From positions 24,862,001 to 24,926,000 of the forward strand of contig CM097886.1 in assembly GCA_044892525.1 (NCBI GenBank): 64,000 bases of DNA, read 5' to 3'. Within the stretch, counting starts at the first letter, position 1. Each line of letters starts with the position of its first letter. Both the position numbers and the translations under genes were made by a program. Positions 18,401 to 63,860 of this stretch are shown here, piece after piece. A model generated the notes under the pieces. It did not search any database, was not told the origin of the DNA, and saw only the letters and a program-made list of their open reading frames with translations. The stretch comes from Schmidtea polychroa. Lineage: Eukaryota.

Positions 18401-21400
18401 TTATACAAATATATTATCGTCTGTTCTTGGTTAATAACTTCTTTTCGTTGACAATTGATGCATTCCACCATCAAATCCAGAATCCTTTTCCAGGCATTAA
18501 TGAAGAAATCTGTCCTGACAAATTGATGAAATCTATAGAAACCTATAAAAAGATTTTTCATTTTCACGAGAGTGCTTTCCATGAATATCGTTATGTTTTT
18601 AGAAAAATTGGAATTTAAAGATGTAAATAGTTCTGAAAAAGTATTTAATAATTCGATATCATTCTTTGAATTTTCTAATATCTTTGCAATTATTTCATTA
18701 AATACTAAATCTGGTGTTTCTGTGGTTAGAGATTGAGAATGTTTAATTAGATTTCCCGATACATAAACTACTGGTTTAGGTGTCATTAGGTGGAGAATTT
18801 TTATTGAATCATCGAAAATAGAATTAAAATTATCATCTATATCTTGATTTTTTTCCATATTTGATAAAATAGTAAAATCTTTGATATCTATGAGAGTTTC
18901 TCCTGTTTCTTTTTTAAATGACAGAGACTTAACTGGGAGTATATCGAATGGACAGGTTTGTTTAATAATCATCCATTTCTTAGCACAATTTCGACATATC
19001 AAGTGTCTACAATTCCTAAATTCAATACTCGTGGCATCGGTCAACTGTGAATAACAAACAAGGCATTCCTCAATGTCGTCCATTGAATTAAAAAAATTTA
19101 TTTCAACGAATATTAAAATAAATTATCATGATATTTAAAATAATTTTTAAAAATTTTACAAATAAATCTATATATTTCATTAAATAATGTAACTGAAGTC
19201 GTAATTGGTTTTTAAACATTGATTTTTAAAAAGAATTTCTTATTTTGAAAATAATTTAAATATTAAAACCAATGACACATTTTTTTCAAATGTAAATCTA
19301 TATTTCAGTTACTCCAATAAGAAAAAGGTAAATATATCTAAAATTAAAAATCACCATAAATAGGAAAAGTAAACTTGAATTTTTGAAGGAATTCATGGAA
19401 GTTTCAATTATCACAAAATTTTTGAACTTTATGCAATTATATAAACCAATTAACTTATTTTGCTTTCTTATTGAATTATATTATTAATATAATTTATAAG
19501 AGTTCATTCTAGAAAATAAAATTAACGAAGAGCAAAATACTCTATCGCCCAATAATAATGAAGCCGAACCCAATCCGCCAGTTCCAATTTTAGCCGTTTC
19601 TCCTAATGAATCAGAGAAAACCATAAATAAGTAAGTAATATTTTGACTATATAATCAACGAAAGTTCATAATTACGGTTGTTGATATGTTGTTAGCAATT
19701 TAAATACCAAAATAACTATCCCATAGATATGTTGGAAGGGTAACAAATTAGCTATTTGTCCATTCAAATTTAATTTATTATTTGACCTATGTATTGAATT
19801 AACCCTTTGACCGTGGTAAAAGTATAAACTATTTTGTTGTTACATTGTGTGTAATTATGGTTACGCAATAATTAATTGAGGTGGAAAATTTTAATCAATA
19901 ATATATTATCTAAAAATCAACCAAAGGGTGTCATGGTGTCATAAATTTGGGAAATCATATTTTCAAACGGGCTTAGTTATTTAGGATATTTAGTCAATAT
20001 TCATGTTAATTAATTCAACGTTAAATGCACATTTAAATTAAAGTTTGGAAAAATTTAAAGAATTGTAAAATGATACCATTTTCAAGTATATTTCAACTGC
20101 TTGGCTCTAAACAACTTCAATAAAAATGGATTATAATAAAAAAGTTTATTGGTAATTACATAATTATATGTGCGGAATCCAATAAAATTATTATCAATAA
20201 TAAAATTAAATAAACATAAAATACACGTGGACAATGTGCCTTGTATGCTGATTTTGAGGTTAAATAACTTTATAATCAAAACTTCGCGAGTAATATAGCT
20301 TTTGAAACCCTTATTATGCTCAATTATATTAGTATTTCTCCATACAAACGGACATGCTCTATAAACCGTTTACAGAGATAACGATAATTTTCCAATTTCA
20401 TACAGTTGTTGCAAAAAATCAGATAATTAATAAATATATTTGTTGACTAGATATAGAAATTACTAACAATTTACATCGTTTTTAAAGGCTAAGGCATTTA
20501 AAAAAATATTGTTCCAACCAGTGTATGCAATACCGCTTCTACAATAGTTTTTTGGTAGGGCATAGTCGACTTTTTCTGCCGGATTTTTACCAAACCGATT
20601 AATTGAAAAAGAACGTGTTTTGAACAATTCAAATGAAACCATAAAAATATCTGTAAAAAAGTAAAAGTATGACAATTTTCGTTTTTCATTGCTACAATCT
20701 CGTTATCTCCATTTCTCGCGAGACGATGAATATTAATACACGGATGTATTAAGTCGCTAGATCTATGAATCTACAACTGCTATTTACTACACGGATAGAT
20801 CTGAGGATATGTAATTTTAGTTAAACATTTTTAACAAAAAAAACTGGTTGCTTCTTCTTGGTTTTCTTGTCAATTTGATTTGGTCATCATTCTAGCTTCT
20901 AGGCTTCTATCTAGTGACCTTTAAACAAAGAAAACATCTACAATTAATATTAAAAAATACAAATTTATGTGACTATGTTTAACTGGATCTATCCGAAATC
21001 TCCAATTTCCCCCCATGTTTTAGTCAAAGTTCAAAAATACGAAATTACCGAGGTACTAGTTGAAAATATTTGGATAATAAATATGGTTAAAATAATCTTA
21101 TAAGTCTGTGGATTTAAAATACTTAATTTTGTAAGCTCAAACAATTTACAACATGATAGTATTCCTTGTATATTTTCTCTTTTGCTTTCTACGGATTAAT
21201 TGTATCAAATATGGTTACGTAGCTACAGATATTTTTAATGGCACATGGACTTAATGGACACCTTGTAACTAAGTAACAAAAAATTTGCTCTTTGATTATC
21301 ATAGAATCTTTAGTATACAGTTTGGATCTAATCAAATGTCAAAGAAAAGTACTTTGAATACCCCAATTTTAAAAATTGCTTCTTCTGCGAGATCATTGAA

Positions 21401-27400: not shown

Positions 27401-30266
27401 TTTTTTCTTAATATGAAAACGAAAGAAACTTATGGGACAACCTAATACATATTATATAATAATGTAAATATTATCCTATAATAAAATGTAAAATTTTGTC
27501 CATTATAAGATTGGGTACATATAAAATTGTCAATTTTTCTTTTTTCCTTTTAATGATTACGCAATATATGTTATTTAAACGCAATACAAAAACCGATTAT
27601 AAATTAATTAGAGTTATAAGTCAATGATTTTTGCAAATGAATTTCATGGAATCTAAAAATGTAATACTAGCGCTGCCTTATTGTATTTTCAATGATATTT
27701 GATCCTTTGGCAATTAATTATTATAAAATTATAGACAAGTAATAAAATGCAAGTTGTTAAATCTGCACTAAAGGCTGGCAATATTAAATTAAATTCCCAG
27801 AAATCGAAAATGTTTACAGATCATTTTCTTTTTACAAATACAGATGATGAAGCATCACCAAATCAATCACAGAAACAGAGATTAATGAAAAATAATTACA
27901 ATGGATTATTCAATACTAAATCAGGCATGTCAAGTATTTATTTGCTACTTATTTATTCTAATTACCTTTCGTCTCGTTTGAATTATCTCTAAAGTAATTT
28001 CCTTGTGGGGAAGAATAAAATGTTCGAATTGGCCAATAATAGCATATTATTTGAATAATTTTCACATTGATATCTGTATAAGGTACAGATATTAATATGA
28101 AAATTATTGAATTAAAAAAATGATGATTTTTTATAGAGAGATATTAAATAAAATAAATTCGGTTTAACTTTAATACTTTTACAATAAACGTGGTAAATTA
28201 AATTCTGAAAACACTGCAGGGTTCAATTTCACGACTATATGATTTATCGAGAAAATAAAGAGATTATTTTAATATACACTTTAACTGGATTGATAATTAT
28301 ACGAAATTATATTGTCAAAAAAATAACAACTTTTTATCATTTTTAAAATAAATCATATTCTGTTGAACTGACTCCGATTGAAAATTGTTTTCTTTATAAA
28401 TGTAGTTTATGACAGCTGTTTGTCGTCACATTACAATCAAATTGTCACAAATGCTTCGTAATTCCTTCTACATTATTAAATAATATTGTTTTCTCTTTCC
28501 CTTTGAAGAATAGTTGTTTTCTTCCTGCAAATCCTCCAAGATAATCTATTAAATAAGTAAAACTGTTAAAGTTTGCCAAATATTATCATCCGTGATTGAC
28601 GCAGTTGTTAGAAAGTAGAATTTAATTGTACATAACTTTTCTTAATACTTACTTTTGATTATATTTTTAAGATATAATAGGTGGTGATTAAAAATTCACA
28701 TGTGTCCAAAGGTAATGCTAGTTACACGTTGTTTTATTGGTATATTGGAAACCGTATCTGAAGATCTTCCCACTTTTCGTGTCACATAATATCAGACCAT
28801 CTGCAATTTCCACTCGAAATGGTAGCAGTGTCATGTTTATTGCGGTTCTGTTGGCAGTTTCATCTATATAGAACAGTGTTGTCCAAAGTTTTTTGAGCCA
28901 CGGCACACTTGGCTGCATTAAAATTTTTCGCGGCACACCTAAATTCTTTTTTGCTTTATTTGCAATTTTTTATTGCACTTTTACTAATCTTTTAATAAGA
29001 AATGAAAAACTTATAAACTAAAAAATATTATTATTTAATATTTAAGATTCTAAATAAACATAATTAAGCTGCTTACGTATTTTAGATAGTCAATATTTCT
29101 AGTAAGAAATATAAATATGATTGTAAACAAATAAATTTCGCACTTAATTGACTGATTAACATTTAAATTAGAAATAACTGTTAAAATATCCACAATTCAA
29201 TTTCCTTTTATTAAGTTGTTTGGAAAATCAGGGTTTTTTGACTTTTAAAAAAAAATTCACGGCACACCTGGGCACCCGCCACGGCACACAGTTTGGACAA
29301 CACTGATATAGACCCTAAGAATTGACCATGCAAATATTTATTAGATGAAACACTATTCGCAAACAGAATCTTTCCCCCTTTATATTTATGCGATATAATT
29401 CTACGAGTTTATCATGATGATCAACACCTCCCATAAACATATTGGGTTTTTTCACGATGGCTGGTCGTTGAATATAAATATATTCTCTCTGAGTTACTGA
29501 CCATTCTTTGATGGCGTCAAAAATGAATTTGTAGTACATTTAGCTCATCATTTCATTCCGTAATCATTCCTCTTGATTAGATAGTTGTATGGAGCCATTA
29601 TCAATTGATATTCCAACGACTAACACAACCAGCAGTTGTGACTCAGTAGATTCCAGTCAAGTACGTCCTTTATCAGTTTGTTCCCATCAATCACCAACTC
29701 CGGTGCCACTATCAATGAAAAAGATTGGAAAAGATAAACCATCTACAAAGAAAGGCATGTTTTTCCTTTATATATTTATAATTTTATTTTCATAATTTAC
29801 GTTCATTTTATTTACAATTTTTATCATTGTAGTCGATTTAAAGCCAATAACTTCTCCAGTGAAAGACAAAATAAAGTTAACTCAATCAACCCAGCCGCTA
29901 AATGAGTCTAATTCACAGCATTTAAACGAAAAATCGGATCAATATATTAAAATTACAAATAATAGCAACAAATTACCATCTCCTGTTAAACAAGTTTCAC
30001 CAGTAAAAGTCAAACCTCAAAAATCTGGACTTGACAAACCAATGTGGGAATGGAGTGCAAATGATGTCGCTGAATTCGTCAAGCAAACTCCTGGTTGCGA
30101 TAATTACGTATCGATGTTTTTAAATCACGAAATAGATGGAGAAGCATTGCTTCTTTTATCAAATGATAATCTTATACAAGGAGCTTTGAATATGAAAATT
30201 GGACCAGCTCTTAAACTTTGCGCTAGAATTGAAAAAAGAAAAGCTCTTGATCCGCCACAACAATAA
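6488..30266 (+). CDS. ph: Polyhomeotic-like (PRC1 PHC family) protein. Exons 6488-6836, 7424-7583, 8848-8999, 14071-14595, 19501-19630, 24830-25148, 27735-27924, 29581-29754, 29833-30266
   Basis: The exons join in compatible phases and total 2433 nt (811 codons). Q/N/P/S-rich N-terminus, HD1 motif KILVHYLDDLIVFESDEPFP, and a C-terminal Ph/Scm-type SAM domain (WSANDVAEFV...HEIDGEALLLL...MKIGPALKL). The 5' end is unresolved: either an upstream exon or the ATG at ~6524. Confidence 0.85.
9034..10190 (-). mobile_element. Internally deleted Tc1/IS630-like (DD34E) transposon
   Basis: ~150-bp TIRs beginning CAGGGTTATTCCC and containing 21-bp tandem repeats; TA on the right flank, CA on the left. ORF 9597-10028 has DNVRFH...YSPDLNPIE with 34 residues between D and E. 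Confidence 0.9.
10320..10523. repeat. Near-perfect ~200-bp palindrome (fold-back MITE-like)
   Basis: ~97-bp inverted arms around a 7-nt loop (CTTCTTT, 10418-10424). Confidence 0.85.
10851..11414 (-). mobile_element. Possible degenerate solo LTR interrupted by a hAT MITE
   Basis: Ends ...CCCAACA on the minus strand with AATAAA upstream; the 5' TG is altered and no TSD was found. Confidence 0.3.
11066..11323. mobile_element. hAT (Buster/Charlie-type) MITE
   Basis: TIRs CAGGGGTGCGGAACC / GGTTCCCCACCCCTG; perfect 8-bp TSD CACTAGCG. Confidence 0.95.
14624..15166 (-). mobile_element. Non-autonomous Helitron
   Basis: On the minus strand: 5' TC start, 3' CTAG end preceded by a GC-rich hairpin (CGGGCGAAGCCGGG), inserted between A and T. 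A second copy of the 3' part lies at 53404. Confidence 0.85.
15502..15635. repeat. 32-bp minisatellite, ~4 copies
   Basis: Unit ~AATACAAGAATATTATTAGAATCAATAACACA. Confidence 0.8.
17440..17595. mobile_element. hAT (Buster-type) MITE
   Basis: TIRs CAGGGGTGGGCA / TGCCCACTCCTG; perfect TSD ATATAGAC. Confidence 0.95.
17680..19083 (-). CDS. Intronless RING-HC finger protein (467 aa), putative E3 ligase, nested antisense in ph intron 4
   Basis: Uninterrupted ATG-to-TGA ORF. N-terminal C-x2-C...C-x-H-x2-C-x2-C...CPFD RING, followed by a long helical-looking region I do not recognise. Confidence 0.8.
   Translation of the reverse strand: MDDIEECLVCYSQLTDATSIEFRNCRHLICRNCAKKWMIIKQTCPFDILPVKSLSFKKETGETLIDIKDFTILSNMEKNQDIDDNFNSIFDDSIKILHLMTPKPVVYVSGNLIKHSQSLTTETPDLVFNEIIAKILENSKNDIELLNTFSELFTSLNSNFSKNITIFMESTLVKMKNLFIGFYRFHQFVRTDFFINAWKRILDLMVECINCQRKEVINQEQTIIYLYKLSQQLERYNQKYDNHVKLMRMLLEENLVFIKNLLAKHMDNLFPNLSTKYDRINSCLSTIPSGNAEIECQKENLLNRAEEIVNSGNLKKNLKFIFHELKKIIISTKKIFKNSPQPECLSIERKLICLELYFYQFDCDEALAIVYSNQIFNQDNFQQNPNVLKDMDIRMLKITKNVSLAMQYNIENYESNNLSIFSANIKFDISIKMSNLKNDCRKYKDSKQVTIQEDIIKSLQSLRHALY
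23036..23258. mobile_element. piggyBac-type MITE
   Basis: TTAA|CCCTTTCAAT left end and ATTGAAAGGA(T)|TTAA right end. Confidence 0.55.
24096..24768. mobile_element. MULE/Mutator-like fold-back non-autonomous element
   Basis: Long imperfect inverted ends built from ~15-bp AAAACATCGAGT-type units; 10-11-bp direct repeat ACATTTTTAC(G) on both flanks. Confidence 0.75.
26380..26490 (+). mobile_element. Tc1/mariner-superfamily transposase fragment
   Basis: Translates to ...VIFSDEAHFHL...VNK, the first catalytic Asp motif. Confidence 0.5.
26638..27445 (+). mobile_element. Internally deleted mariner (DD34D) element
   Basis: TIRs TTAGGTTGTCCCATAAGT with TA TSD. Remnants include HVMLHCFKKG, WFRRFKAGNF, FLHDNARPH and PHPPYSPVIAPSDYYLF. 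Confidence 0.95.
28760..29539 (-). mobile_element. piggyBac transposase remnant split by a hAT MITE
   Basis: PAIVKKPNMFMGGVDHHDKLVELYR...FHLINICMVNS on one side of the MITE and ...LYIDE...LLPFRVEIADGL on the other. Confidence 0.8.
28874..29305. mobile_element. hAT (Buster-type) MITE
   Basis: TIRs CAGTGTTGTCCAAA / TTTGGACAACACTG; TSD ATATAGAA/ATATAGAC (7/8). Confidence 0.92.
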
Positions 30267-35400: not shown

Positions 35401-37147
35401 AAATATTGCCTCAAACAGTTTCAATTAAAACAAAGAAATGGTTTATTTGACTCAGTTGTATTCATTAACTTTATAAGAAACATACAGAATTAACAGCTTT
35501 ATAAAGATTTCAAAGATAATAGCTTGTTATTTGTTATAATAAATCAAGTTTTATTCACGAATGTTATCTATGTTATTCATAGAAATTTAAATTTATTGCA
35601 ATTTCAACAAATTTTCATTTATAATTAATTTATTTTTGGACTATAAATGAATGCTTTTGTGGTAAATAAAAAAACACTGATTTGTAGTCCAGAACTAATT
35701 GAAGATAATGAAAACAGATCACAGATTGAAAAAGATAAATGACGTAACTGATAATGTTTATAAATCTATTGAAATGTATCAAATAGAATCTCAGATTTTG
35801 CACCCCCAACTTCACTTATCAAGAAAGTCAACATAAATTAAAATAATAACAAATATATAAGCAAGGCTCTATGTGGTATATAATTATCACCAAACAAATT
35901 TCAAGGTCACGGCCCTCTTCCTATTAACACTGAAGTTTGTGATAATAAATATTAGTTTGTCATTTGATAGGGCCCAAACAATTTAATATTCATTTATGTC
36001 CATATCCAATTATAACCTGAACCCTCTAATTGTGAAATGGCAACATCAAAATGGTCATCACCTGTAGAAATGGCAGCAACTTTTATTGTTGTGGACATTT
36101 TTTAATTATGAAATCTTTGTTAAATAGTTAGTAAAAATTTGAAATTTCAAAACCACACAAAATTATTAGAGATTTTTGTCGTGCATAATTTCATAACTGT
36201 TGCCAAAATAAATTCAGTTTATACTCTTGTTATGTAATACTGATTACGTCATATCATATGTTGAATTGCAGCCAATTGCAGTTCATTTGAAATGCGCTTC
36301 GTGAAACGGGAGCGTGTGCTACATGTCCAGAAATTATTGGTCATTGAAAGATTACAAAATGCAATTTTTATTAATTTATAATATTAAATGATATAAAATT
36401 TCATACATTTTACTTCATATAGCGCACAATTGTTTATTCACTGAACGAATCAGAAAATTTTTAATTTGAAATCAAACGGCGAAAAAATTGAGGAAATTAT
36501 AACAAAAACATTAAAACATTAAATTTTTTTCAAAAACATTATTACAATTACTTAATAATTGTTTAATTTCACTAACGTAAACATTGCTTCTAGATACCTC
36601 AAAAGCAAGAAAGTAAAGAGCTGCTACTGAGTACGAAATGTAAAGAAACCTGAGTCCACAAGTAAAGAAATACGAGTCATCTCTGCCGTTGACTTGTGGT
36701 CACGTTGCGATTTGATACATCCATTCTTTTTGTTTTTATCTCTGCAATTCATTTTTATCAACTGTTAAATAAAATGGTATTTGAAATTATATTAGATTTC
36801 CATGCTTCATATATTATATTAGGTTAACCATTATAATTAATGTGTATGAATGCCAGCATGTCTAATTGATTATTTGGATTCTCAGATTATGTCACTGTTT
36901 ATTATTTATCCATATAGATATATATAGTACATATTGTTGGGATAAAGGTACAAAATAAAACGGAAGCATAATAAAAATTAATAAAAACACCAAAATAACA
37001 AAAGTGCAAAAATTTATTAAAATATTTGTAAAATGTAAAAACTTATATCGATCAGGAAAAATGAGTATGGTTGAATCCTAAATCTTGAGACGAATCCAAA
37101 AACAATAATAACAATAACAAAAAAAAATTAAAAAAAAATAACAAACT

Positions 37148-40100
37148 AGTAGTATGTAGTAAGGACTCCAGGACACTTTCAAGGTCATGGAATATCAAGA
37201 TCAAATATAGGTCAATTGAATCATTATTATTATTATTATTTATTTTTTTTTAAATTAACATTTTATTTAATTACTTCTTTTTAATTTTTTCTTTATAATT
37301 TTTATAATTAATTATTTTATGATGTTATATTTTAATTACTTACTTTAGTTAATTTTTAATTTATTACATTTAATTAATTCATTAGTTTATTAATATTTTA
37401 TTTTAATTACCTTCGCTATTTAATTATTATTATTATTATTATTATTTTTTTTTAATTTTAATTTTATTTAATTACTTCTATTTATTTATTTTATTTTTTT
37501 TCTCTTTAATTTTATTAATTAATTATTTTATGATGTTATATTTTTAATTACTTACTTTAGTTAATTTTTAATTTATTACATTTAATTAATTAATTTGTTT
37601 TTTAATATTTTGTTTTAATTACTAACGTTATTTAATTATTATTATTATTATTTATTTTATTTATTTATTTATTTTTTTTTTAATTTTACATTTACATTAT
37701 ATTCTAACAAGAACGTAAATTATAACATTAATATTTCAATTTGAATAAAATTTTAATTAGTAATTATTCAATTCGAATAAAATTTTAATTAGAAATTATT
37801 TAATTTATTATAAAATAAAACGATGATTTAATTTTTGATAAACCGGATATTAATATTTCGGAAAAAATAAATAAATAAATAAAATAAACACGAAAATAAT
37901 ATTTCTTACTTGAAACTAATTATCTAAAATAATTGGACAAATGAATTATTAAATGATAAAACATATTTTAATTAACGAAGACAAATTATTCACAATATAT
38001 ATTTTATTATTCACATAAATTTAATTGTTAAAGTGCTTGTTTCGATTTGCATTAATTTCTAGACATAGCAGTTGCAATATGCATTTGGCGAATCTTATAG
38101 TGACCGTAGGCATAACTTTCATTACAATTGTACCAATACCTTTTATCGTCCAAACATTGGAGAGCTCATTTTTCTGTCATGAAAGTATACAACTGATGAT
38201 TGACACTTCCTATTCTTTTTTGTGGGATGCTCACTGTTCCACCATCAGTATACACTTTTTTATAGGCTTCATGGGTGATATTAGAATTTGTAAGTCTTAT
38301 TCCTTTGGCTTTTAGAGTGTTTTTATCGCCTTGGAGTGAGTAGCACTTGGGTCGAAGAAACACCCATTCTTTATATTGATTTCCTTTATTCTCATCCTTA
38401 ACTTTCCCGATTACAGAACAAATTTTATCAGAGAACAACGGATCGGTCACTGGATAATTTGAAGTATCTAGGAGCCCATCTTCAATCATTTTTGGATATA
38501 GTTGTAAGCGTAAATCTACATTTTTACACTCTAAAAAGAAGGAATCTGTGTCACGGGCTACGATATTAATTTGACAATTGAATTCTTCTCTATAATTCTG
38601 TAGTTCTTTATATTGAAACTGGTACATGCGAAGTTTGGATAAATCAAGTACGGTTTGTCCAATATACATTGGTCTATCTAAACACACAATTTCCTTATTG
38701 AGTATAACAGCAATGAGATCATCCGCAATCTTGATGCTACGACGAAACATAGGATGACTACAATAAGTTATCAATCTTTTGCTTTTGTTGCGTTTCTTTT
38801 TATACGTTTCTTCAAGTTTTCCACAGTTTTACCATATAAACTGTTGTTCTTTAACTTATAATAATCTCGCTGAAACGAATCCGTACTAGCTGCTCTCATT
38901 TTGGTATTGTAATCAATATATCCTTTGAAAATAGCCACTTGCTTGAATTCTACAGCACGATTAACTTTTGTGACTTTTGCGGCGTAACTCAACCACTCTG
39001 TCAAAATTCTACCATTAACTACATAGTTTTTCTTAGGCTCATGAGTTAACAACAGCTTTTCAACTTTACTACCAAGTGGATAACAAAGCTCAGGAGCTAT
39101 AGGTAAATCATCTAGCTTATCTTGTATACTATCAGGAATGACGATGTCAACCTCTAGAACATATCCACGATCTCCATCAAACTCATCCCCATTTGCACAT
39201 CTTTCAACAATACCATTCATTTCAGTCTGATCATTTATCCATCTAAATTCACCAACAGGAAGTTTTTGCGACAGCGCCCATCCATATAAATTATTAACAT
39301 CTAGGTATGACATTTGTGTTGATTCATCAGCTTCAACATGATGTTTGTTGATAAATGTCATTCCACCACGAATACCAGCTTCAAATAAACGGTAAAGCTC
39401 TGGATTTTGAATAAGTTCTACCGGTTCAGGTAACTGTTTAATAGCTGATGCCCAACTTAATCCGGGTATGGAAACAAACGATAGAGCCTCAAGTCCATCT
39501 TCGTCAAATGTTTTTTCTCTGAAAGCTTCAAAAACATCGGCCAACAGAAAAACATCCAGCTTGAGATATACTAGCATGTAATCTAGCAGTGTCTCACAGT
39601 TGTATTGTTGCCAGATTCGATTTGCATGTATATAATCTTCTTCACTAACTCCCTCCCAAATCAGTGCTAATTCTGTTATTGACTGTAAAACATCCATTGA
39701 TGTAGCCATTTCATAAGGAAAAATGGTTTTACAAGTCATCATCTGTGATTCGAAAACATCTGAGGTCAGTGGAAGACATGGTAAATTTTTTGATAAATTT
39801 GCCAAGCTGCTATTTAAAAATTGTAAAAAATCAATGAATCTAATTCTTCTGCCTTTCGATGTCGCTGTAAGTGTGAGAAACCTTTCTGTTGATTGAGGAA
39901 TAACATTTAAATTCCAATCGGGGAATTTTCAATTGCATATTTTAATATATGATGAATGTCATATCCACGAAGATTGTGAAATACAACAGGTAAAGACGGA
40001 TTGATTCTTCTAGCCAAATTACAATCTTGACACGCTGCTCCGAGATATTGACCGGTAAAATGATCATGATCCCGAACAGGTATATTGATAATCTTTTTAC

Positions 40101-40785
40101 AAAAGTAGCAATGAGTTTGATTCGTAAATTCTTCCTGCTGTTCCCAAGTGAGTTCCATCATTTCCTTCGATCCATTAATTTTATACCACGGATAAACTAT
40201 GTCTGTAGCTATATCATCCAATGCTTGTATAAACTGAATGATACAGTTTTTCCCAACAAATGTTTCATTTCGAATCGGACAACCTTGATGAAGAAGCACA
40301 AATTCAGATGCAATCGGCTCATGTTTTTGGAAGTGCTTGTCATCTAGAGGTAATATTGATTCAAAATCCGCGTAGACAACAAACTGCTGTTTTATAGTTT
40401 TACTCCAGTCTTTAAATTCGATATATTTATTCTCTGGCATTGAGTATAGAGTCGTCTGCTCCACATTCTTCCTACAAAGACCTATATGTCTTTCAAAAGC
40501 AGGACGTTTTTGAAACCCATGAAGACACGTATGACACAAATGTGATTGGATTCTGACTCCTTCTACTCTATCTCTGTAATTGAGCAGTCGATCGAGATTA
40601 GTTACAGCCAAAAAATGATAATTTAATTCTAAAATTTAGTTAATATTTTTAATGATTAAAGGAAATATTACCTTCTTCAATCAATAAGAGATATAATTGA
40701 GATCCCGTCGAAGTACTTCTATATACCAAGTCAACGAACAGATTCTTGAAAATATCATTAGTTTTTTGTTTAATTGGATCTTTAT
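37148..40785. repeat. Left arm of the giant terminal inverted repeat (~3.64 kb)
   Basis: Reverse complement of 45691-49327, differing by scattered substitutions and 1-nt indels. Confidence 0.95.
37230..37680. repeat. Subterminal AT-rich tandem duplication (~211-bp period), mirrored in the right arm
   Basis: GATGTTATATTTTTAATTACTTACTTTAG recurs at 37321 and 37532. Confidence 0.75.
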
Positions 40786-41101
40786 TATATTTGAGAACAT
40801 TGATCGCTAGATTAGGATTCATTGCCTCAAATTGGGAAATGTTAACCAACTTCATTGGAAACCAATCTGATTTCCATTTTAACTCTAAATATATATATTT
40901 AGAATGATATAAATATATATTACCACTTAAATTATATTTCATTGCTCTTTCTCTGTGGTGTTTTATGTCATCATAATGTAATACGGCCAGTATGCTATAT
41001 AAAAAGTAGAATTGATCATTATTTTGAACATTAACTAAAGCCTGGCAGTTTTTCAGGTAATTTGGCGTTTTAATGTAACTTGAACCTAAGTAAATATCTT
41101 G

Positions 41102-41178
<77 letters not shown>

Positions 41179-42126
41179 GAAAATAAACTTACCAGATACA
41201 TGTATTATGTCTGCTAATTTAGTTAAAATCATAGTAACTTCTAATATTTTATGAATTCTCCACCCACTACTGTGTTGAGTGTATTTCTCCAACTTTTCTT
41301 TTAATTTTTCAATTCCATCATTAATAAATGAAGATGACATTGTAATTGCTTTATTCGACAAACGCCATTTTTTAATTTCACCATCCTCTTTGATAAACTC
41401 TGCACAAAGTCCAAATATGATTTTTACTGTACCCATTCGTTGAATATGATCTTCTATTTCTTTGATGAGACAATCTGGAACAACAATGTCAGGAGAATTA
41501 ATTGCAGATACATCGCTTGTCAATTCAACACGAGAACCATTTAAGTCTGACTCCCGACGTGGACACAATTGTATGTTAGAGTCTCCATTTCCGTAAAATA
41601 TTGACTTTCGTTTTGTGGTGCCAGAGTTTTGTCTAACTATATTTATAATTAATATTAAACAACTTAAATAACATAACTTGTAACATATTCTTTAATCTGC
41701 TTAGGATCGTATGATGTATTCATTTTCGATTGTACTATAAAAAACAATTAATAATTGTTAATAGTAGAAAGAGTATTACTTTTAGTGATCATCCTGCTCT
41801 TCGTTTCTTCGAATTTTCTAAGATGGTGTCCGTGTTGTCGTACAAACATTAACCACCTACCTGGTGATATAATGAGACATTCCGGACATATGTAACCCGA
41901 TAAGGTAGAGTCATTTATCTTGAAATATGATGATGTAACTGATTTACAGTTCTCCACATCTTCATGACTTTCGGCAATACAAAATTTATATAAACTGCAT
42001 CCGTTCACTAAAAGAAAATAATCATTAATATTAGATAGAGAATAAAAAAAATTATTCACTTATATAAGTTAAATTAAAAGTTTAAATGACAAACATTTGA
42101 AAAGTTACTGCTTATATATTACACAT
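38052..42126 (-). pseudogene. polB: Intron-containing protein-primed DNA polymerase B (~1230 aa if repaired). Exons 42126-42123 (tentative), 42007-41780, 41734-41678, 41636-41193, 41085-40924, 40884-40672, 40628-38052
   Basis: Motifs SSGWRIHKI, GSSYIKTP, NVQNNDQFYFLYSIL, ExoI VVYADFES, EndoVII-like VRDHDHFTGQYLGAACQDCNL, ExoII FHNLRGYD, ExoIII YLKLDVFLLADVFEAFRE, pol A YLDVNNLYGWALS, pol B KLKNNSLYGKT, pol C DTDS. Lesions: 1-nt deletion at ~39930, frameshift at ~38790, CGA>TGA at ~38167. Confidence 0.92.
41105..41176. repeat. (TA)n microsatellite inside a polB intron
   Basis: Lies within the GTAAGT...TTAG intron 41192-41086. Confidence 0.95.
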
Positions 42127-42319
42127 GATTAAATTCTGACCAATCAAAATCAAGGAAGGGGTAGGAAAAATAAATGCATTACGTTGCAGTATTTTAAAAC
42201 TTCAATATATTTTAAAACACATTTTGATGCTAAAGTTGACTTATTTAACATTTTCATAATAATTTAATAAAAATAATGTGATGAACCCACAAAGTAATAT
42301 CATTTTTCATCAAATTGCA

Positions 42320-42725
42320 AAACAGTAATAACGTTTTCAAAAAATTGTAACAAAGTAATAACATATTTCAGATAAATTTTCAACAGTTGTAAAATATTTA
42401 AGCAAATTATAACAAGATTAGAAAATATTACAACAAAGTTGTAAAATATTTATCAAATTGTAACTAAAATAATAAAAATATTGCAACAAAGTAATAAAAT
42501 AATGATGTTAATTGGGACAAATCAAGATTAGAAAATATTACTTCTAATATTATTTCGAAGACGGACAACAAATTAAAAAGAATATTGTAATAAATTGTGA
42601 AGTCTTTCAGTAAATTACAACAAAGTAATAACATATTTCGGAAATATTTCACCAGATGTAAAATATTTAAGCAAATTGTTATAAGATTATAAAAATATTG
42701 CAACAAAGTAATAAAATAATACAAC
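42320..42725. repeat. Degenerate ~25-bp tandem repeats upstream of polB
   Basis: Recurrent ACAAAGTAATAACATATTTC / TTGTAAAATATTTA units. Confidence 0.7.
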
Positions 42726-42740
42726 ATTTTAAACTCTAGA

Positions 42741-43490
42741 TCAATCCATTTTATAGAAAATTAAATTTTATCTCTATAATAAATGAATAAATATACAAGG
42801 AAATTACGTTAACGTATAATAAATATAAATTTATCGTAAAAACATGTGTGTATTACACACAAAACAAGATACATATTTTCTAATCAATCCATTTTATAGA
42901 AAATTAAATTTTATTTATATATTATATGAATAAATATCCAAGAAAATTACGTTAACTGTATGAAAAATACAAATTTATCGTAAAAACATGTGTGTATTAC
43001 ACACAACATACGAGACATAATTTTTAATCAAGCTATTTTATAGAAAATTAAATTTTATCTATATAATATATGAATAAATATCCAAGGAAATTACGTTAAC
43101 GTATAATAAATATAAATTTATCGTAAAAACATGTGTGTATTACACACAAAACAAGATACATAATTTCTAATCAATCCATTTTATAGAAAATTAAATTTTA
43201 TCTATATATTATATGAATAAAATTCTAAGAAAATTACGTTAACTGTATGAAAAATACAAATTTATCGTAAAAACATGTGTTTTACACACAAAGCGACAAA
43301 CTAAAATGTAATTGAGCCATTTTAGAGAAAATTAAATTTTATCTATATAATATATGAATAAAAATCCAAGAAAATTACGTTAACCGCGCGAAAAATACAA
43401 ATTTATCGTAGAAACATGTGTGTATTACACATTAAACACCAAACTAAAATTGTAATTGAGCCATGTTGTAGAGAATTAAATTCTGCCTAT
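42741..43490. repeat. ~143-bp tandem array (5 units plus a partial unit)
   Basis: Unit starts at 42741, 42884, 43028, 43171, 43312 and 43456. Confidence 0.9.
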
Positions 43491-43653
43491 ACATGGTTAC
43501 ACTTAAATCCCAATCGCACTTAGAGAAAAGAGACAGGGGTGAAAAAGAGAGAGAAAAAACAGTAGAGTAGGGTATTGTGTGGAGCCGGGTGAAACCTTTG
43601 CATAGATCTCTTCAAGACCTTTCGAATGATGTGAATAAAATATAATTAAATTT

Positions 43654-44912
43654 TAAAATACCGCAACGTAATATATTTAATAATTAAAATACCGCAACGT
43701 AATATATTTTATAATTAAAATACCGCAACGTAATATATCTAATAATTAAAATACAACAACGTAATATCTAATAATTAAAATACCGCAACGTAATATATTT
43801 AATAATTAAAATACCGCAACGTAATATATTTAATAATTAAAACACCGCAACGTAATATATTTAATAATTAAAATACCGCAACGTAATATATTTAATAATT
43901 AAAATACCACAACGTAATATATCTAATAATTAAAATACCACAACGTAATATATTTAATAATTAAAATACCGCAACGTAATATATTTAATAATTAAAATAC
44001 CGCAACGTAATATATTTAATAATTAAAATACCGCAACGTAATATATTTAATAATTAAAATACCGCAACGTAATATATTTTATAATTAAAATACCGCAACG
44101 TAATATATCTAATAATTAAAATACAACAACGTAATATATCTAATAATTAAAATACCGCAACGTAATATATTTTATAATTAAAATACCGCAACGTAATATA
44201 TCTAATAATTAAAATACAACAACGTAATATATCTAATAATTAAAATACCGCAACGTAATATATTTAATAATTAAAATACCGCAACGTAATATATTTAATA
44301 ATTAAAACACCGCAACGTAATATATTTAATAATTAAAATACCGCAACGTAATATATTTAATAATTAAAATACCGCAACGTAATATATTTAATAATTAAAA
44401 TACCGCAACGTAATATATTTAATAATTAAAATACCGCAACGTAATATATTTAATAATAAAATACCGCAACGTAATATATTTAATAATAAAATACCGCAAC
44501 GTAATATATTTAACAATTAAAATACCGCAACGTAATATATTTAATAATTAAAATACCGCAACGTAATATATTTAATAATTAAAATACCGCAACGTAATAT
44601 ATTTAATAATCAAAATACCGCAACGTAATATATTTAATAATTAAAATACCGCAACGTAATATATTTAATAATAAAATACCGCAACGTAATATATTTAACA
44701 ATTAAAATACCGCAACGTAATATATTTAATAATTAAAATACTGCAACGTAATATATTTAATAATTAAAATACCGCAACGTAATATATTTAATAATTAAAA
44801 TACCGCAACGTAATATATTTAATAATTAAAATACTGCAACGTAATATATTTAATAATTAAAATACCGCAACGTAATATATTTAATAATTAAAATACCGCA
44901 ACGTAATATATT
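43654..44912. repeat. 31-bp minisatellite, ~40 copies
   Basis: Consensus TAATTAAAATACCGCAACGTAATATATTTAA. Confidence 0.97.
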
Positions 44913-45073
44913 AAAAAAAATTTTTTTTTTAATTTTAAAAAAAAATTATTTTTTAAATTTTTTTAAAAATTTTTTTAAAAAAATATATTACGTTACAACT
45001 GTTGAAAATTTATCTGAAATATGTTATTACTGTGTTACAATTTTATGAAAACGTTATTACTGTTTATATATTG

Positions 45074-45681
45074 TTGATAATCTTTTTACAAAAGTAGCAA
45101 TGAGTTTGATTCGTAAATTCTTCCTGCTGTTCCCAAGTGAGTTCCATCATTTCCTTCGATCCATTAATTTTATACCACGGATAAACTATGTCTGTAGCTA
45201 TATCATCCAATGCTTGTATAAACTGAATGATACAGTTTTTCCCAACAAATGTTTCATTTCGAATCGGACAACTTTGATGAAGAAGCACAAATTCAGATGC
45301 AATCGGCTCATGTTTTTGGAAGTGCTTGTCATCTAGAGGTAATATTGATTCAAAATCCGCGTAGACAACAAACTGCTGTTTTATAGTTTTACTCCAGTCT
45401 TTAAATTCGATATATTTATTCTCTGGCATTGAGTATAGAGTCGTCTGCTCCACATTCTTCCTACAAAGACCTATATGTCTTTCAAAAGCAGGACGTTTTT
45501 GAAACCCATGAAGACACGTATGACACAAATGTGATTGGATTCTGACTTCTACTCTATCTCTGTAATTGAGCAGTCGATCGAGATTAGTTACAGCCAAAAA
45601 ATGATAATTTAATTCTAAAATTTAGTTAATATTTTTAATGATTAAAGGAAATATTACCTTCTTCAATCAATAAGAGATATA
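45074..45681 (-). pseudogene. polB: Third, internal polB fragment (direct copy of 40085-40695)
   Basis: Same sequence as the left arm except a 3-nt deletion (VEGVR>VEVR) and G>S. Forms a ~610-bp inverted repeat with 45781-46391. Confidence 0.93.
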
Positions 45682-45690
45682 GATCTAAAG

Positions 45691-48424
45691 ATAAAGATCC
45701 AATTAAACAAAAAACTAATGATATTTTCAAGAATCCGTTCGTTGACTTGGTATATAGAAGTACTTCGACGGGATCTCAATTATATCTCTTATTGATTGAA
45801 GAAGGTAATATTTCCTTTAATCATTAAAAATATTAACTAAATTTTAGAATTAAATTATCATTTTTTGGCTGTAACTAATCTCGATCGACTGCTCAATTAC
45901 AGAGATAGAGTAGAAGGAGTCAGAATCCAATCACATTTGTGTCATACGTGTCTTCATGGGTTTCAAAAACGTCCTGCTTTTGAAAGACATATAGGTCTTT
46001 GTAGGAAGAATGTGGAGCAGACGACTCTATACTCAATGCCAGAGAATAAATATATCGAATTTAAAGACTGGAGTAAAACTATAAAACAGCAGTTTGTTGT
46101 CTACGCGGATTTTGAATCAATATTACCTCTAGATGACAAGCACTTCCAAAAACATGAGCCGATTGCATCTGAATTTGTGCTTCTTCATCAAGGTTGTCCG
46201 ATTCGAAATGAAACATTTGTTGGGAAAAACTGTATCATTCAGTTTATACAAGCATTGGATGATATAGCTACAGACATAGTTTATCCGTGGTATAAAATTA
46301 ATGGATCGAAGGAAATGATGGAACTCACTTGGGAACAGCAGGAAGAATTTACGAATCAAACTCATTGCTACTTTTGTAAAAAGATTATCAATATACCTGT
46401 TCGGGATCATGATCATTTTACCGGTCAATATCTCGGAGCAGCGTGTCAAGATTGTAATTTGGCTAGAAGAATCAATCCGTCTTTACCTGTTGTATTTCAC
46501 AATCTTCGTGGATATGACATTCATCATATATTAAAATATGCAATTGGAAAATTCCCCGATTGGAATTTAAATGTTATTCCTCAATCAACAGAAAAGTTTC
46601 TCACACTTACAGCGACATCGAAAGGCAGAAGAATTAGATTCATTGATTTTTTACAATTTTTAAATAGCAGCTTGGCAAATTTATCAAAAAATTTACCATG
46701 TCTTCCACTGACCTCAGATGTTTTCGAATCACAGATGATGACTTGTAAAACCATTTTTCCTTATGAAATGGCTACATCAATGGATGTTTTACAGTCAATA
46801 ACAGAATTACCACTGATTTGGGAGGGAGTTAGTCAAGAAGATTATATACATGCAAATCGAATCTGGCAACAATACAACTGTGAGACACTGCTAGATTACA
46901 TGCTAGTATATCTCAAGCTGGATGTTTTCTGTTGGCCGATGTTTTTGAAGCTTTCAGAGAAAAAACATTTGACGAAGATGGACTTGAGGCTCTATCGTTT
47001 GTTTCCATACCCGGATTAAGTTGGGCATCAGCTATTAAACAGTTACCTGAACCGGTAGAACTTATTCAAAATCCAGAGCTTTACCGTTTATTTGAAGCTG
47101 GTATTCGTGGTGGAATGACATTTATCAACAAACATCATGTTGAAGCTGATGAATCAACACAAATGTCATACCTAGATGTTAATAATTTATATGGATGGGC
47201 GCTGTCGCAAAAACTTCCTGTTGGTGAATTTAGATGGATAAATGATCAGACTGAAATGAATGGTATTGTTGAAAGATGTGCAAATGGGGATGAGTTTGAT
47301 GGAGATCGTGGATATGTTCTAGAGGTTGACATCGTCATTCCTGATAGTATACAAGATAAGCTAGATGATTTACCTATAGCTCCTGAGCTTTGTTATCCAC
47401 CTGGTAGTAAAGTTGAAAAGCTGTTGTTAACTCATGAGCCTAAGAAAAACTATGTAGTTAATGGTAGAATTTTGACAGAGTGGTTGAGTTACGGCGCAAA
47501 AGTCACAAAAGTTAATCGTGCTGTAGAATTCAAGCAAGTGGCTATTTTCAACGGATATATTGATTACAATACCAAAATGAGAGCAGCTAGTACGGATTCG
47601 TTTCAGCGAGATTATTATAAGTTAAAGAACAACAGTTTATATGGTAAAACTGTGGAAAACTTGAAGAAACGTATAAAAAGAAATGCAACAAAAGCAAAAG
47701 ATTGATAACTTATTGTAGTCATCCTATGTTTCGTCGTAGCATCAAGATTGCGGATGATCTCACTGCTGTTATACTCAATAAGGAAATTGTGTGTTTTGAT
47801 AGACCAATGTATATTGGACAAACCGTACTTGATTTATCCAAACTTCGCATGTACCAGTTTCAATATAAAGAACTACAGAGTTATAGAGAAGAATTCAATT
47901 GTCAAATTAATATCGTAGCCCGTGACACAGATTCCTTCTTTTTAGAGTGTAAAAATGTAGATTTACGCTTACAACTATATCCAAAAATGATTGAAGATGG
48001 GCTCCTAGATACTTCAAATTATCCAGTGACCGATCCGTTGTTCTCTGATAAAATTTGTTCTGTAATCGGGAAAGTTAAGGATGAGAATAAAGGAAATCAA
48101 TATAAAGAATGGGTGTTTCTTCGACCCAAGTGCTACTCACTCCAAGGCGATAAAAACACTCTAAAAGCCAAAGGAATAAGACTTACAAATTCTAATATCA
48201 CCCATGAAGCCTATAAAAAAGTGTATACTGATGGTGGAACAGTGAGCATCCCACAAAAAAGAATAGGAAGTGTCAATCATCAGTTGTATACTTTCATGAC
48301 AGAAAAACGAGCTCTCCAATGTTTGGACGATAAAAGGTATTGGTACAATTGTAATGAAAGTTATGCCTACGGTCACTATAAGATTCGCCAAATGCATATT
48401 GCAACTGCTATGTCTAGAAATTAA
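45691..48424 (+). pseudogene. polB: 5'-truncated polB copy in the right arm
   Basis: ORFs 45865-47019, 46932-47705 and 47702-48424. Retains the 43-nt intron (45805-45847); has a private 1-nt deletion at ~46928 and the shared frameshift at ~47675. Confidence 0.93.
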
Positions 48425-49327
48425 TGCAAATCGAAACAAGCACTTTAACAATTAAATTTATGTGAATAATAAAATATATATTGTGAATAATTTGTCTTCG
48501 TTAATTAAAATATGTTTTATCATTTAATAATTCATTTGTCCAATTATTTTAGATAATTAGTTTCAAGTAAGAAATATTATTTTCGTGTTTATTTTATTTA
48601 TTTATTTATTTTTTCCGAAATATTAATATCCGGTTTATCAAAAATTAAATCATCGTTTTATTTTATAATAAATTAAATAATTTCTAATTAAAATTTTATT
48701 CGAATTGAATAATTACTAATTAAAATTTTATTCAAATTGAAATATTAATGTTATAATTTACGTTCTTGTTAGAATATAATGTAAATGTAAAATTAAAAAA
48801 AAAATAAATAAATAAATAAAATAAATAATAATAATAATAATTAAATAACGTTAGTAATTAAAACAAAATATTAAAAAACAAATTAATTAATTAAATGTAA
48901 TAAATTAAAAATTAACTAAAGTAAGTAATTAAAAATATAACATCATAAAATAATTAATTAATAAAATTAAAGAGAAAAAAAATAAAATAAATAAATAGAA
49001 GTAATTAAATAAAATTAAAATTAAAAAAAAAATAATAATAATAATAATAATAATTAAATAGCGAAGGTAATTAAAATAAAATATTAATAAACTAATGAAT
49101 TAATTAAATGTAATAAATTAAAAATTAACTAAAGTAAGTAATTAAAATATAACATCATAAAATAATTAATTATAAAAATTATAAAGAAAAAATTAAAAAG
49201 AAGTAATTAAATAAAATGTTAATTTAAAAAAAAAATAATAATAATAATAAATGATTCAATTGACCTATATTTGATCTTGATATTCCATGACCTTGAAAGT
49301 GTCCTGGAGTCCTTACTACATACTACT
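45691..49327. repeat. Right arm of the giant terminal inverted repeat
   Basis: Reverse complement of 37148-40785. Confidence 0.95.
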
Positions 49328-49569
49328 CAAACTAATTAAAAATTAATTAATTGCTAAAGGAAATGCCGAAAACAGTAACGCAAAGATTTATGTGAAATAA
49401 TTATAGGTTTTCTAATTTCTTATACTTAAATGACTTTTTTGAGCATTTTTGAGTATGCAGTGAGAAAATAAATGTATTTTATCTTTTACATACAAAATGA
49501 AAGCTTTTCAATTACGTTCAAATTTTTAGAATAGTACAATATGAAATTTTTTCCAAAAGTTGTGGAAAT

Positions 49570-52121: not shown

Positions 52122-52810
52122 TTAGACACGCTTCACGCTAAATTTGATAAATATTTGATCTCCTCTACAAAGAGCAGGATTGTTTCTTACTTTATTTAAT
52201 TCAATAAATTGTGCAAATCCGTAACTTTCGTTTTTTTCGCTTTCGGGTTTACAGAGTTCTTCAGTAATCGGGTGATTAGATAAATTTCCGGTTTCAGTGA
52301 TGAAATCCAATTTTGTTGTTTGGTTTATTAATGCAAACTTAATCTCACATTTCATGGGCCATGGTAAAATATCATCATAGGGACCTTTCATAATACAGAA
52401 AAATAGTGACAAATACAAAACTTTGCTATCATCGCAATCTAGATCAAAGTTGAGACACATTTTGTATCCGTGTTTGAAAGCATAGAATGGATCACTAAAA
52501 ATACTAAAGTTTGTATCAGTTTCTATTTGTTTAATTTTTTCTGAAAATTTATCAATCTTCCATATGTATTCATCATAATACTGTTTTTCTACATCATCCT
52601 TCAACTTGGTAATTGTCATTTCTGTATTTTCTACCCTTGCATTAAGTTTTTGAATGTTTTCTTCGAATTCTTTAATTTTTTTCTAAAAAATATTTTCAAA
52701 ATTTATATCAATTTCAAATACATTTTTTTTACATTTATTGTAATAAGTTGTTCGGTTATTTTTTCTAAATCGCTTGATTTGGATTTTGTCGAAGATTCGG
52801 CATTGTCTAG
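52122..52810 (-). CDS. TRAF-like protein, 3' exons (coiled coil + MATH/TRAF-C domain). Exons 52810-52733 and 52682-52122
   Basis: A 50-nt GT-AG intron (52732-52683) joins the coiled-coil exon in frame. MATH motifs YIWKIDKF, FSDPFY..KHGYKMCL, YLSLFFCIMKGPYDDILPWP. The 5' exons could not be recovered. Confidence 0.8.
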
Positions 52811-53139
52811 CTAAAATGAAATATTGATAATAAATATAATAATTTTTATTCTAATTCTAGGTACAGTTCAATTGTTTGTGATGTTTACTTGATGGCAAAG
52901 GTTTCATTTTTATTCTTGAATAATAATAAATTCGATCAGTTTTAGTAGTGACCTCTGTCCTCGTTTAGACAGGACATAGGTGACTATAAGTTTTAAAATA
53001 AAACATGATTAATTAAATACTTCGCGTTAATTTTTTTTACAATTGAAGCTTTCATTAAATACGTACCTTTTTTCAGTCTAACTGTAAATGGTCATATTAA
53101 ATAAGTAGTAGGGATGCAATAATAATAAACGTAATAATA

Positions 53140-62842: not shown

Positions 62843-63860
62843 ATGTCAGAAATAAATAATTTACAAAATTTAAATGAGAATAATTTACAAAATAATAATG
62901 TGCCAGTAGCTCAACCACCAGCGGTAGATTTTATGAGATATCCAACAATTCCAATTAAACCATTTAGTGGGAACCCAGTGAAGTTTCTAGAATTTATGTC
63001 CGAATATTTTCAGTTTGCCAGAGCATTAGGATTCCCGGAACCAGTAATGATTTTGAGATGACCTTTATATTTAAAAGGGATGGCGCGGGGAATATATAAT
63101 TATGTTATAATAACCGAACATTCAGTCGAATGGAATGTATTGCGATTAGCGCTACAAAACAGAATATTACCGGGGGATGCAACTAGAGTGCTGAGACAAC
63201 AGTTTTATAACAGGCGACAAAATTCGTGTGAGCATGTTGGGGAATTTTCATATCAAATATTGATGTTGGTGGAAAGAGCGTTTGGTAATAGGGCAGCCTG
63301 GAATGATGCAACTACAGCATTAGTAAAGGACCAGTTTTGATCAGGGTTATCGTCAGCAATGAGAAATGCAATCAGTTTCCACATAGGGGATAATTTAGAT
63401 GAATTAACCCGTAAAGCATGTTTAATCGAAAGTAGTATTGAAAAGTCGAGCAATTTTGCAATTAGTAGCAATAAGTCCGACATTGAGTGTTTCAATTGTC
63501 ATAAAAAGGGACACATATCAAAAGATTGTAAAAGTAGGAATAATTCTCCAGGGGACAAATTATGTACCAAATGTGGGAGAAGTAATCATGTGGCATCAAA
63601 CTGTAGAATTTCGAACCTAAATTGTGAGAAATGCAATCGCACGGGACATGTAGCGTCAGTTTGTAAAGCTAGTTTTGGGGGGAATAACTCAAATAATAAC
63701 AATAATAGTAGAAATAGAAGCCTAATAATAATTTTCAGAGTAGAAATAATAATTTTAATAATAATATAAAAAGGGATGAAGTAAATTCGGGGGCAAAATT
63801 AAATGTCATAAGTGTGGAAAATTTGGTCATATTATGCGTTCATGTCCACAAAATCAATTA
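62843..63860 (+). pseudogene. gag: Ty3/Gypsy gag with two in-frame TGA stops and a frameshift; CCHC zinc knuckles
   Basis: One frame runs through ORFs 62843-63061, 63080-63340 and 63359-63769. Knuckles CFNCHKKGHISKDC, CTKCGRSNHVASNC, CEKCNRTGHVASVC and (frameshifted) CHKCGKFGHIMRSC. Confidence 0.88.

Follow-up and report, generated by a model that had tools for sequence, protein, structure and literature searches.

Polinton core genes are called intronless in the available text of PMC8097293 and of bioRxiv 2022.07.12.499685, and the initial annotation of this locus had rightly given the same description for their protein-primed DNA polymerase of family B (pPolB). The pPolB gene studied here is unlike this, because it is interrupted by six intron-like segments. 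Are these segments introns, how old are they, and what kind of element carries them? We analyzed the 64,000-nt window (the whole stretch of DNA containing the gene), further copies of the gene in the same genome, and homologous proteins. We think it probable that the locus is a palindromic, polymerase-only Polinton derivative whose pPolB carries six GT-AG, phase-1 segments that the host spliceosome very likely removes, and that at least three of these are likely old and patchily shared within one subclade.

We re-read the gene on the minus strand. All six segments (numbered introns 1 to 6) start with GT, end with AG, and lie in phase 1, and their GC content is 7–18% versus 28–36% in exons 2–7. 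The likely first exon, ATG-T (42123..42126; ATGT in 25/25 genomic copies), is followed by intron 1 (42008..42122, 115 nt; 105–115 nt among copies, not a multiple of three in 22/25) and by exon 2 (41780..42007, 228 nt), whose Cys/His-rich N-terminal region has homology to the N-terminal end of pPolBs that are uninterrupted. Intron 2 (41735..41779, 45 nt) has an in-frame stop in 25/25 copies. Exon 3 (41678..41734, 57 nt) is a variable linker that alone gives no significant homologue match, and intron 3 (41637..41677) is 41 nt long in 25/25 copies. Exon 4 (41193..41636, 444 nt) would encode the whole predicted terminal-protein domain, as judged from a structure model and from the domain order in the available text of bioRxiv 2024.03.18.585575. 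Intron 4 (41086..41192, 107 nt) contains (TA)n and falls in the linker between the terminal protein and a vOTU domain, a position apparently common to nine divergent relatives. Exon 5 (40924..41085, 162 nt) covers the first part of the vOTU domain with the catalytic Cys position, an invariant residue of the homologue alignment, and exon 6 (40672..40884, 213 nt) covers the middle of that domain, according to homologue matches and the structure model. Between them lies intron 5 (40885..40923, 39 nt here and 39–91 nt among copies), whose position is apparently also used in the relative P0131; that of intron 6 (40629..40671, 43 nt) apparently recurs in P0003. Exon 7 (38052..40628) holds the end of the vOTU domain, an endonuclease VII-like zinc region, the exonuclease, and the polymerase; its downstream ORF matches PF03175 (E 2e-24) and PF02945.

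The phase-1 frame is the only open frame of each internal exon, and the six pairs of coordinates, the phase, and the exon sizes proposed initially were all borne out. With their GT-AG ends and AT-rich interiors, as in major-class spliceosomal introns, the segments resemble host introns. Three points needed revision, one of which, the 39-nt intron, is taken up below. The exonuclease and polymerase part had been described as a single exon: it is indeed uninterrupted by introns, but here it is not one open frame. Because its last exon falls into three ORFs (39907–40635, 38771–39928, and 38166–38828), the window copy is a pseudogene. Intron 1 had been called tentative: its GT-AG ends, its phase, and the ATGT upstream hold, but its donor is ambiguous, being either the GT at 42122, after ATG-T, or the GT at 42108, in which case the ATG start codon would arise across the junction. 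Both candidates are conserved and in phase 1, and the first Cys of homologues, at residue 5 (2/4) or 4 (2/4), is compatible with either.

Does removal of the segments yield a known protein? A 385-aa ORF used as query matched 275 proteins, of which we used the best 120. The closest of these 120 are 53–61% identical to the query, and a representative search returned no protein with an identity above 62%. Among the best 120 of 275, matches at E below 0.001 numbered 41 for exon 4, 96 for exon 5, 55 for exon 6, and 119 for exon 7, against six for exon 2 and none for exon 3. In P0006, the closest relative, successive exon matches adjoin, separated by the single residue of the split codon. Junction offsets, taken from alignments to the first 60 homologous proteins, were zero in 40/43 spanning homologues at intron 4 and in 42/50 at intron 6. 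At intron 5 the offset was zero in 7/45 and +2 residues in 37/45, and P0006 joins exactly. The linker around introns 2 and 3 is variable and aligns poorly (zero offset in 2/11 and 9/14, respectively). Removing the segments restores an open frame, as had been proposed, and this frame is collinear with the uninterrupted homologues, clearly at introns 4, 5, and 6 and weakly at introns 2 and 3; those homologues join exon to exon. One close metagenomic locus, L041, encodes its pPolB as one ORF. A search of related loci with an alignment found five distant loci, viral contigs searched with the window ORF, P0130, and P0123 gave no related locus, and a weak search with exon 4 among longer proteins found no spliced product.

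The genome holding this gene (G000; 781 Mb in four very large contigs) contains many near-identical pPolB copies. We aligned 25 of 35 fetched regions, omitting 10 without part of the gene. The ATG, all six splice pairs, and open exons 2–6 are retained in 17/25 copies, the last exon is open over 866–869 codons in 12/25, and 11/25 combine both. The initial annotation had proposed comparing intron positions across copies: the 24 columns of splice dinucleotides show no shared variant in the 25 copies, and lengths vary (46–107 nt for intron 4, for example). Four copies of a more distant subfamily also retain all six splice pairs. Introns 3 (41 nt) and 6 (43 nt) shift the frame in 25/25 copies, and stops occur in introns 1, 2, 3, and 6. 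Intron 4 is a stop-free multiple of three in 18/25 copies, and intron 5 in 8/24. The 39-nt intron 5, initially taken as the weakest, is not a multiple of three in 14/24 copies, which rules out a coding in-frame insertion, nor in 9 of the 11 fully open copies. In two neighboring copies (L002 and L003, G000:C4:73588464-73597006), intron 5 is only 15 nt long and keeps its GT and AG; it is in frame and probably too short to splice.

Variants common to at least three copies in exons 2–6 comprise 16 synonymous and 14 non-synonymous changes (pN/pS 0.21, p 4e-5), and private variants there have a pN/pS of 0.56. The corresponding values for the last exon are 0.13 for variants in at least three copies versus 0.76 for private ones. 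Stops are private only, never shared. The catalytic Cys and His are each retained in 24/25 copies. The density of shared substitutions in introns (10/326 columns) is not above that in exons (38/1104). Conserved ends, free length, and exons under selection are the pattern of spliceosomal introns. Without splicing, the RNA of none of these copies can encode the polymerase, given the frameshifts from introns 3 and 6 and the stop in intron 2. The exons upstream of frame-shifting segments were under selection during the spread of the family; therefore, splicing was required. Judging from the DNA, the six segments are very likely host-style spliceosomal introns.

What carries this gene? The pPolB gene lies in the left arm of a 12,180-bp palindromic, pPolB-only element (37148..49327) with AGTAGT...ACTACT termini, flanked by 6-bp target-site duplications CAAACT (37142..37147 and 49328..49333, plus strand). 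The inner arm holds 144-bp tandem repeats (42737..43491), and a 31-bp tandem array (43609..44900) marks the center of the palindrome. The right arm (45691..49327, plus strand) contains a mirror copy of the pPolB that begins within exon 6 and includes intron 6, along with the terminal region. It is internally rearranged here: part of exon 7 and of intron 6, duplicated in inverted orientation, occupies 45074..45681 on the minus strand, and within 44949–46391 these parts make up a secondary palindrome (45074–45681 versus 45781–46391). Full-size copies are 12–14-kb palindromes that run from the end through an outward pPolB and the 144-bp repeats to the 31-bp-repeat center and the mirror arm. The terminal motif has 407 matches in G000, corresponding to about 200 elements. 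An exact 6-bp duplication flanks 26/30 elements with paired ends, each having its own, which rules out an assembly artifact as the source of the palindrome. The arms of one element are 98.2–99.96% identical (15/15 tested) versus a median of 97.2% between copies.

The (AGT)2//(ACT)2 ends, which match the motif in the available text of PMC8097293, the 6-bp duplication, and a protein-primed family B polymerase with terminal protein and vOTU are those of Polintons. The pPolB is the only gene, once per arm: no integrase, ATPase, protease, or capsid gene was found inside elements fully covered by arm parts or in 20 further arms. The element is a non-autonomous Polinton derivative and not a complete Polinton, which the initial annotation had missed. 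G000 contains a 16.1-kb Polinton with integrase, ATPase, protease, and AGTAGT ends, and the canonical Polintons with these genes and ends (L100-L102) are likely helpers. ATPase, protease, and capsid genes also occur in other G000 elements; a complete Polinton with the exact ends of this family was not found among the regions fetched from this genome.

A second palindromic, pPolB-only family has inner repeats 91% identical to these and a polymerase that is 54% identical and unbroken at introns 4–6. Its members at G000:C1:81451951-81467112 (L134-L136) and C1:109925606-109937931 (L131-L133) have different ends, share the 144-bp inner repeats and the upstream region, and apparently have a 5′ intron only. 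Two polymerase lineages share one palindromic frame. Twenty arms sampled from 968 inner-motif matches all hold a pPolB, 16/20 of the second family and 4/20 of a subfamily of the six-intron family; other core genes occur in 0/20, and a multipartite Polinton is rejected. Other repeats were seen in passing. At G000:C1:381164-1337808, close to the start of C1, many terminal motifs lie on one strand, partly in tandem units of ∼4.4–4.6 kb that hold only the element end, and a Polinton of another family (L109-L111, G000:C3:134877000-134906999) appears as a large inverted duplication with arms of ∼8 kb that are 82–95% alike. Elsewhere in the window lie a Tc1/DDE-type transposase remnant (9597–10043) between inverted repeats of 21-bp subrepeats (8997–10208), a 480-codon RING-finger ORF (17680–19122, minus strand), a SAM-domain exon (29796–30266, plus strand), and a zinc-knuckle, gag-like ORF (63341–63769, plus strand); no tRNA was found in the 64,000 nt.

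We wondered how old the introns are. A search with exon 4 gave 54 matches, 38 of which reach the end of that exon. Among these 38 relatives, 22 continue into the exon 5 motif by pattern (a few more by eye), and nine end 1–25 residues past the conserved (S/T)-G at intron 4. Most of the nine ends are I/F/Y/K/N-rich tails, such as G-KFYYIYLFIITF, and resemble the read-through of this gene itself. A similar end occurs in P0131 at intron 5 (codon 288). At intron 6 (codon 359), P0003 has an insert of 15 hydrophobic residues; this protein begins just past intron 4 and lies on a contig of 13,555 nt, the same length as the contig of P0123, which is among the nine. These relatives are only 38–62% identical, and their putative introns are read from protein ends, some of which may be contig ends or frameshifts. 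All ten intron-4 rows belong to a single subclade of 29 rows (support 92), interspersed with 19 uninterrupted rows; they do not form one clade (p-AU 0.008; 57 rows, unknown-state rows excluded). Judged by the protein ends, scattered members of one subclade appear to have introns where introns 4, 5, and 6 lie. The introns are thus likely to be old and retained in places rather than newly acquired; repeated loss or exchange of old introns fits best, and parallel gain at the Gly codon is possible. The initial annotation had suggested that a Polinton lineage acquired host-style introns: host-style and spliceosomal they very likely are, but the read-through signatures in divergent relatives at introns 4, 5, and 6 speak against a private acquisition.

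The alternative is that this family gained all six introns recently in this host, the same positions in relatives being parallel gains at favorable G|GT sites or coincidences. We consider this unlikely. A quick polymerase tree (row h4b was dropped for lack of a match) places the family as sister to four uninterrupted metagenomic proteins (P0001, P0006, P0002, and P0007; SH-aLRT 96) and apart from the other pPolB families of G000, which are without introns 4–6 and align there unbroken. The single ORF of L041 fits a recent gain as well, as does P0125, which lies on a contig as long as that of P0002 (17,960 nt) and runs through codons 234, 288, and 359. However, 3/3 well-alignable positions recur in relatives, each in phase 1. 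A G|GT site is available at the conserved Gly codon of intron 4, but the sites of introns 5 and 6 lack such a Gly; and the intron-4 rows, while not one clade, all lie inside one subclade. Compared in 15 pairs, the six introns have no clear mutual likeness (the lowest p is 0.013 before correction), and hence nothing points to one intron-making element as their source; an introner origin was rejected in the same comparison, the introns not being near-identical copies of one element. We prefer the reading in which old introns have been repeatedly lost or exchanged.

Eight of 10 other G000 pPolB frames have no Met before the first motif and have a phase-1 AG acceptor there, three codons from intron 1. 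In the pPolB frames of complete Polintons (L094-L113 and L131-L147), this acceptor falls at one shared codon (8/10), pointing to a spliced leader exon. The adenovirus E2B transcription unit has a short leader exon.

Could the segments have begun as tolerated in-frame insertions that were spliced only later? Only phase 1 keeps GTAA...TAG ends stop-free, introns 4 and 5 are often stop-free multiples of three that would have stops in phase 0 or 2, the intron-6 segment of P0003 also reads through, and intronization is a published model (available text of PMC2586383). We nevertheless judge such an origin improbable: stop-free read-through is at chance level (p 0.23–0.38), the codons where introns 4, 5, and 6 lie show no proneness to indels (5, 0, and 2 of 64 homologues with an indel), and introns 1, 2, 3, and 6 contain stops. 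Existing coding sequence was not intronized either, because after splicing the products do not fall short of the homologues by the length of an intron. As to the uniform phase, phase 1 follows 80/165 AG and 231/503 G positions in the coding sequence. With the background share of phase-1 introns taken as 30%, six of six in phase 1 has p 0.0007, or about 0.01 with a composition-aware null, for a pattern picked after the fact. The uniform phase is likely inherited and favored by base composition rather than an exon-skipping device.

The initial annotation had also proposed that symmetric exons allow modular splicing of the terminal-protein and protease region. We modeled the first 600 residues of the L041 homologue (pLDDT 86). 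An alpha/beta domain at about residues 112–226 weakly matches Y-family little-finger domains (E 0.003–0.03), and the fold search with this model gave no match at E 0.001; this fold is reported for Polinton terminal proteins. The domain that follows has invariant C260 and H363, which correspond to the vOTU Cys/His pair in the available text of bioRxiv 2024.03.18.585575. Introns 4, 5, and 6 map to codons 234, 288, and 359, so that in the model introns 5 and 6 lie inside the vOTU domain, between the catalytic Cys, encoded in exon 5, and the His at the beginning of exon 7. Only exon 4, the predicted terminal protein, matches a whole domain. Because introns 5 and 6 fall inside the vOTU domain, skipping exon 5 or 6 would break it, and modular splicing in the proposed form is not supported.

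A narrower version is that the symmetric phase-1 exons serve alternative splicing, with exon 4 skipped to give a polymerase without terminal protein or intron 4 retained to give a free terminal protein. Exon 4 does contain the whole predicted terminal-protein domain, intron 4 sits at the boundary where vOTU is proposed to cut, and retention in the nine relatives would end the protein just past the terminal-protein domain. Here, however, intron 4 is a stop-free multiple of three in 18/25 copies and its retention would not end the protein; the vOTU is split by introns 5 and 6, and no isoform occurs among the contigs of runs X1-X4 (see below). Such use of the exons seems rather improbable. Comparably improbable is a broader speculation: one subclade of animal Polintons may keep an old intron exactly at the terminal-protein/protease boundary, splicing it to make the complete polymerase and retaining it to make terminal protein on its own, and a fold-back, polymerase-only satellite would be its carrier here. 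If true, this would be a living intermediate toward adenovirus, in which the terminal protein and the polymerase are spliced separately.

Following the RNA check suggested at the outset, we aligned contigs of runs X1-X4 (X2 and X3 are the same sample) to a copy. Among the contigs of these four runs, none recorded as RNA, there was no splice joint on the element. Contigs of X1, X2, and X4 cover pPolB intron sequence, and those of X2 enter or cross introns 2, 3, and 6; those of X3 cross no element intron. X1 looks like DNA, with a depth of about 3 on single-copy intergenic sequence and 100–300 on the element. An X3 contig skips the 50-nt intron (52683–52732) of a host TRAF-like gene, a TRAF/MATH-domain fragment at 52122–52920 on the minus strand; this intron, noted earlier, is real, and the sample holds RNA. 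The intron retention in X2 is only a weak negative against efficient splicing in that sample because read-through RNA or carried-over DNA can come from the roughly 400 copies of the gene in the genome. In a planarian, Polintons increase when smedwi-2 is knocked down (available text of PMC8532177). It is barely credible that these are AT-rich neutral insertions, or the decay of dead copies, and not introns: the window copy is a pseudogene, no spliced RNA occurs among these contigs, and Genewise reads insertions in decayed Mavericks as introns (available text of PMC8097293), but the GT-AG pairs sit at exact homology boundaries in all copies examined, including 11 otherwise open ones, and purifying selection acted upstream of frame-shifting segments.

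With the segments read as spliceosomal introns, a replication cycle can be proposed. The pPolB would be transcribed in the nucleus, outward from the palindrome center, and spliced into an mRNA for a terminal protein-vOTU-exonuclease-polymerase polyprotein of ∼1,236 residues. The polymerase would copy the excised element by protein priming at its AGTAGT ends; replication would fold back through the central repeats, one arm serving as template for the other, and the integrase of complete Polintons of the same genome would insert the copy. For its own copying, the element is likely to rely on splicing by the host.

How does this element compare with known systems? Like Polintons or Mavericks (animal adintoviruses), it has a pPolB with terminal protein and vOTU, the (AGT)2//(ACT)2 ends, a 6-bp duplication, and a size of 12–14 kb, and its layout of terminal protein, vOTU, exonuclease, and palm is theirs (available text of PMC8097293, bioRxiv 2024.03.18.585575, and PMC8502044). 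Unlike them, it lacks the other core genes, and its inverted repeats of ∼6.4 kb contain the gene, versus a reported 46–1,447 bp. Spliceosomal introns inside Polinton-like elements are also known from introner-bearing Maverick/Polinton-like elements of dinoflagellates, where, in the available text of bioRxiv 2025.03.18.643946, the introns derive as copies from active transposons that make introns, and most were acquired after integration. The six introns here, in contrast, are mutually unlike, were carried through replication under selection, and, judging from protein ends, share positions with distant relatives. Nematode Mavericks (bioRxiv 2022.07.12.499685, available text) are animal elements with introns as well, but their introns are in captured host genes and the core is intronless, whereas here they are in the replicative polymerase. 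In adenovirus, the terminal protein and protein-primed polymerase also come from host-spliced mRNAs, of the E2B unit; they are separate proteins and the vOTU is inactive (available text of PMC7851563), whereas here one polyprotein is predicted, its Cys/His pair is kept, and the introns lie inside coding domains. The literature searched, including the available text of bioRxiv 2023.08.22.554363, PMC6431247, PMC8532177, PMC11296320, bioRxiv 2024.03.25.586562, and PMC12220804, yielded no report of an intron-split animal pPolB or of a palindromic, pPolB-only Polinton; Kapitonov and Jurka 2006, Repbase, or supplements may describe such planarian elements. New here are the apparent introns that the alignments suggest at positions 4, 5, and 6 in relatives that are 38–62% identical.

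Taken together, these results bear on how Polintons are counted and how they live. Surveys define intact elements by intronless ORFs, and a subclade with an intron-split pPolB would be scored as decayed or missed. Introns carried through recent replication under selection would tie the polymerase to the host spliceosome and nucleus. The same three codons, patchily interrupted in relatives, and intron-poor families on the same palindromic frame may serve as a test system for intron gain versus loss. The palindromic, polymerase-only build may be a natural record of how Polinton DNA is copied.
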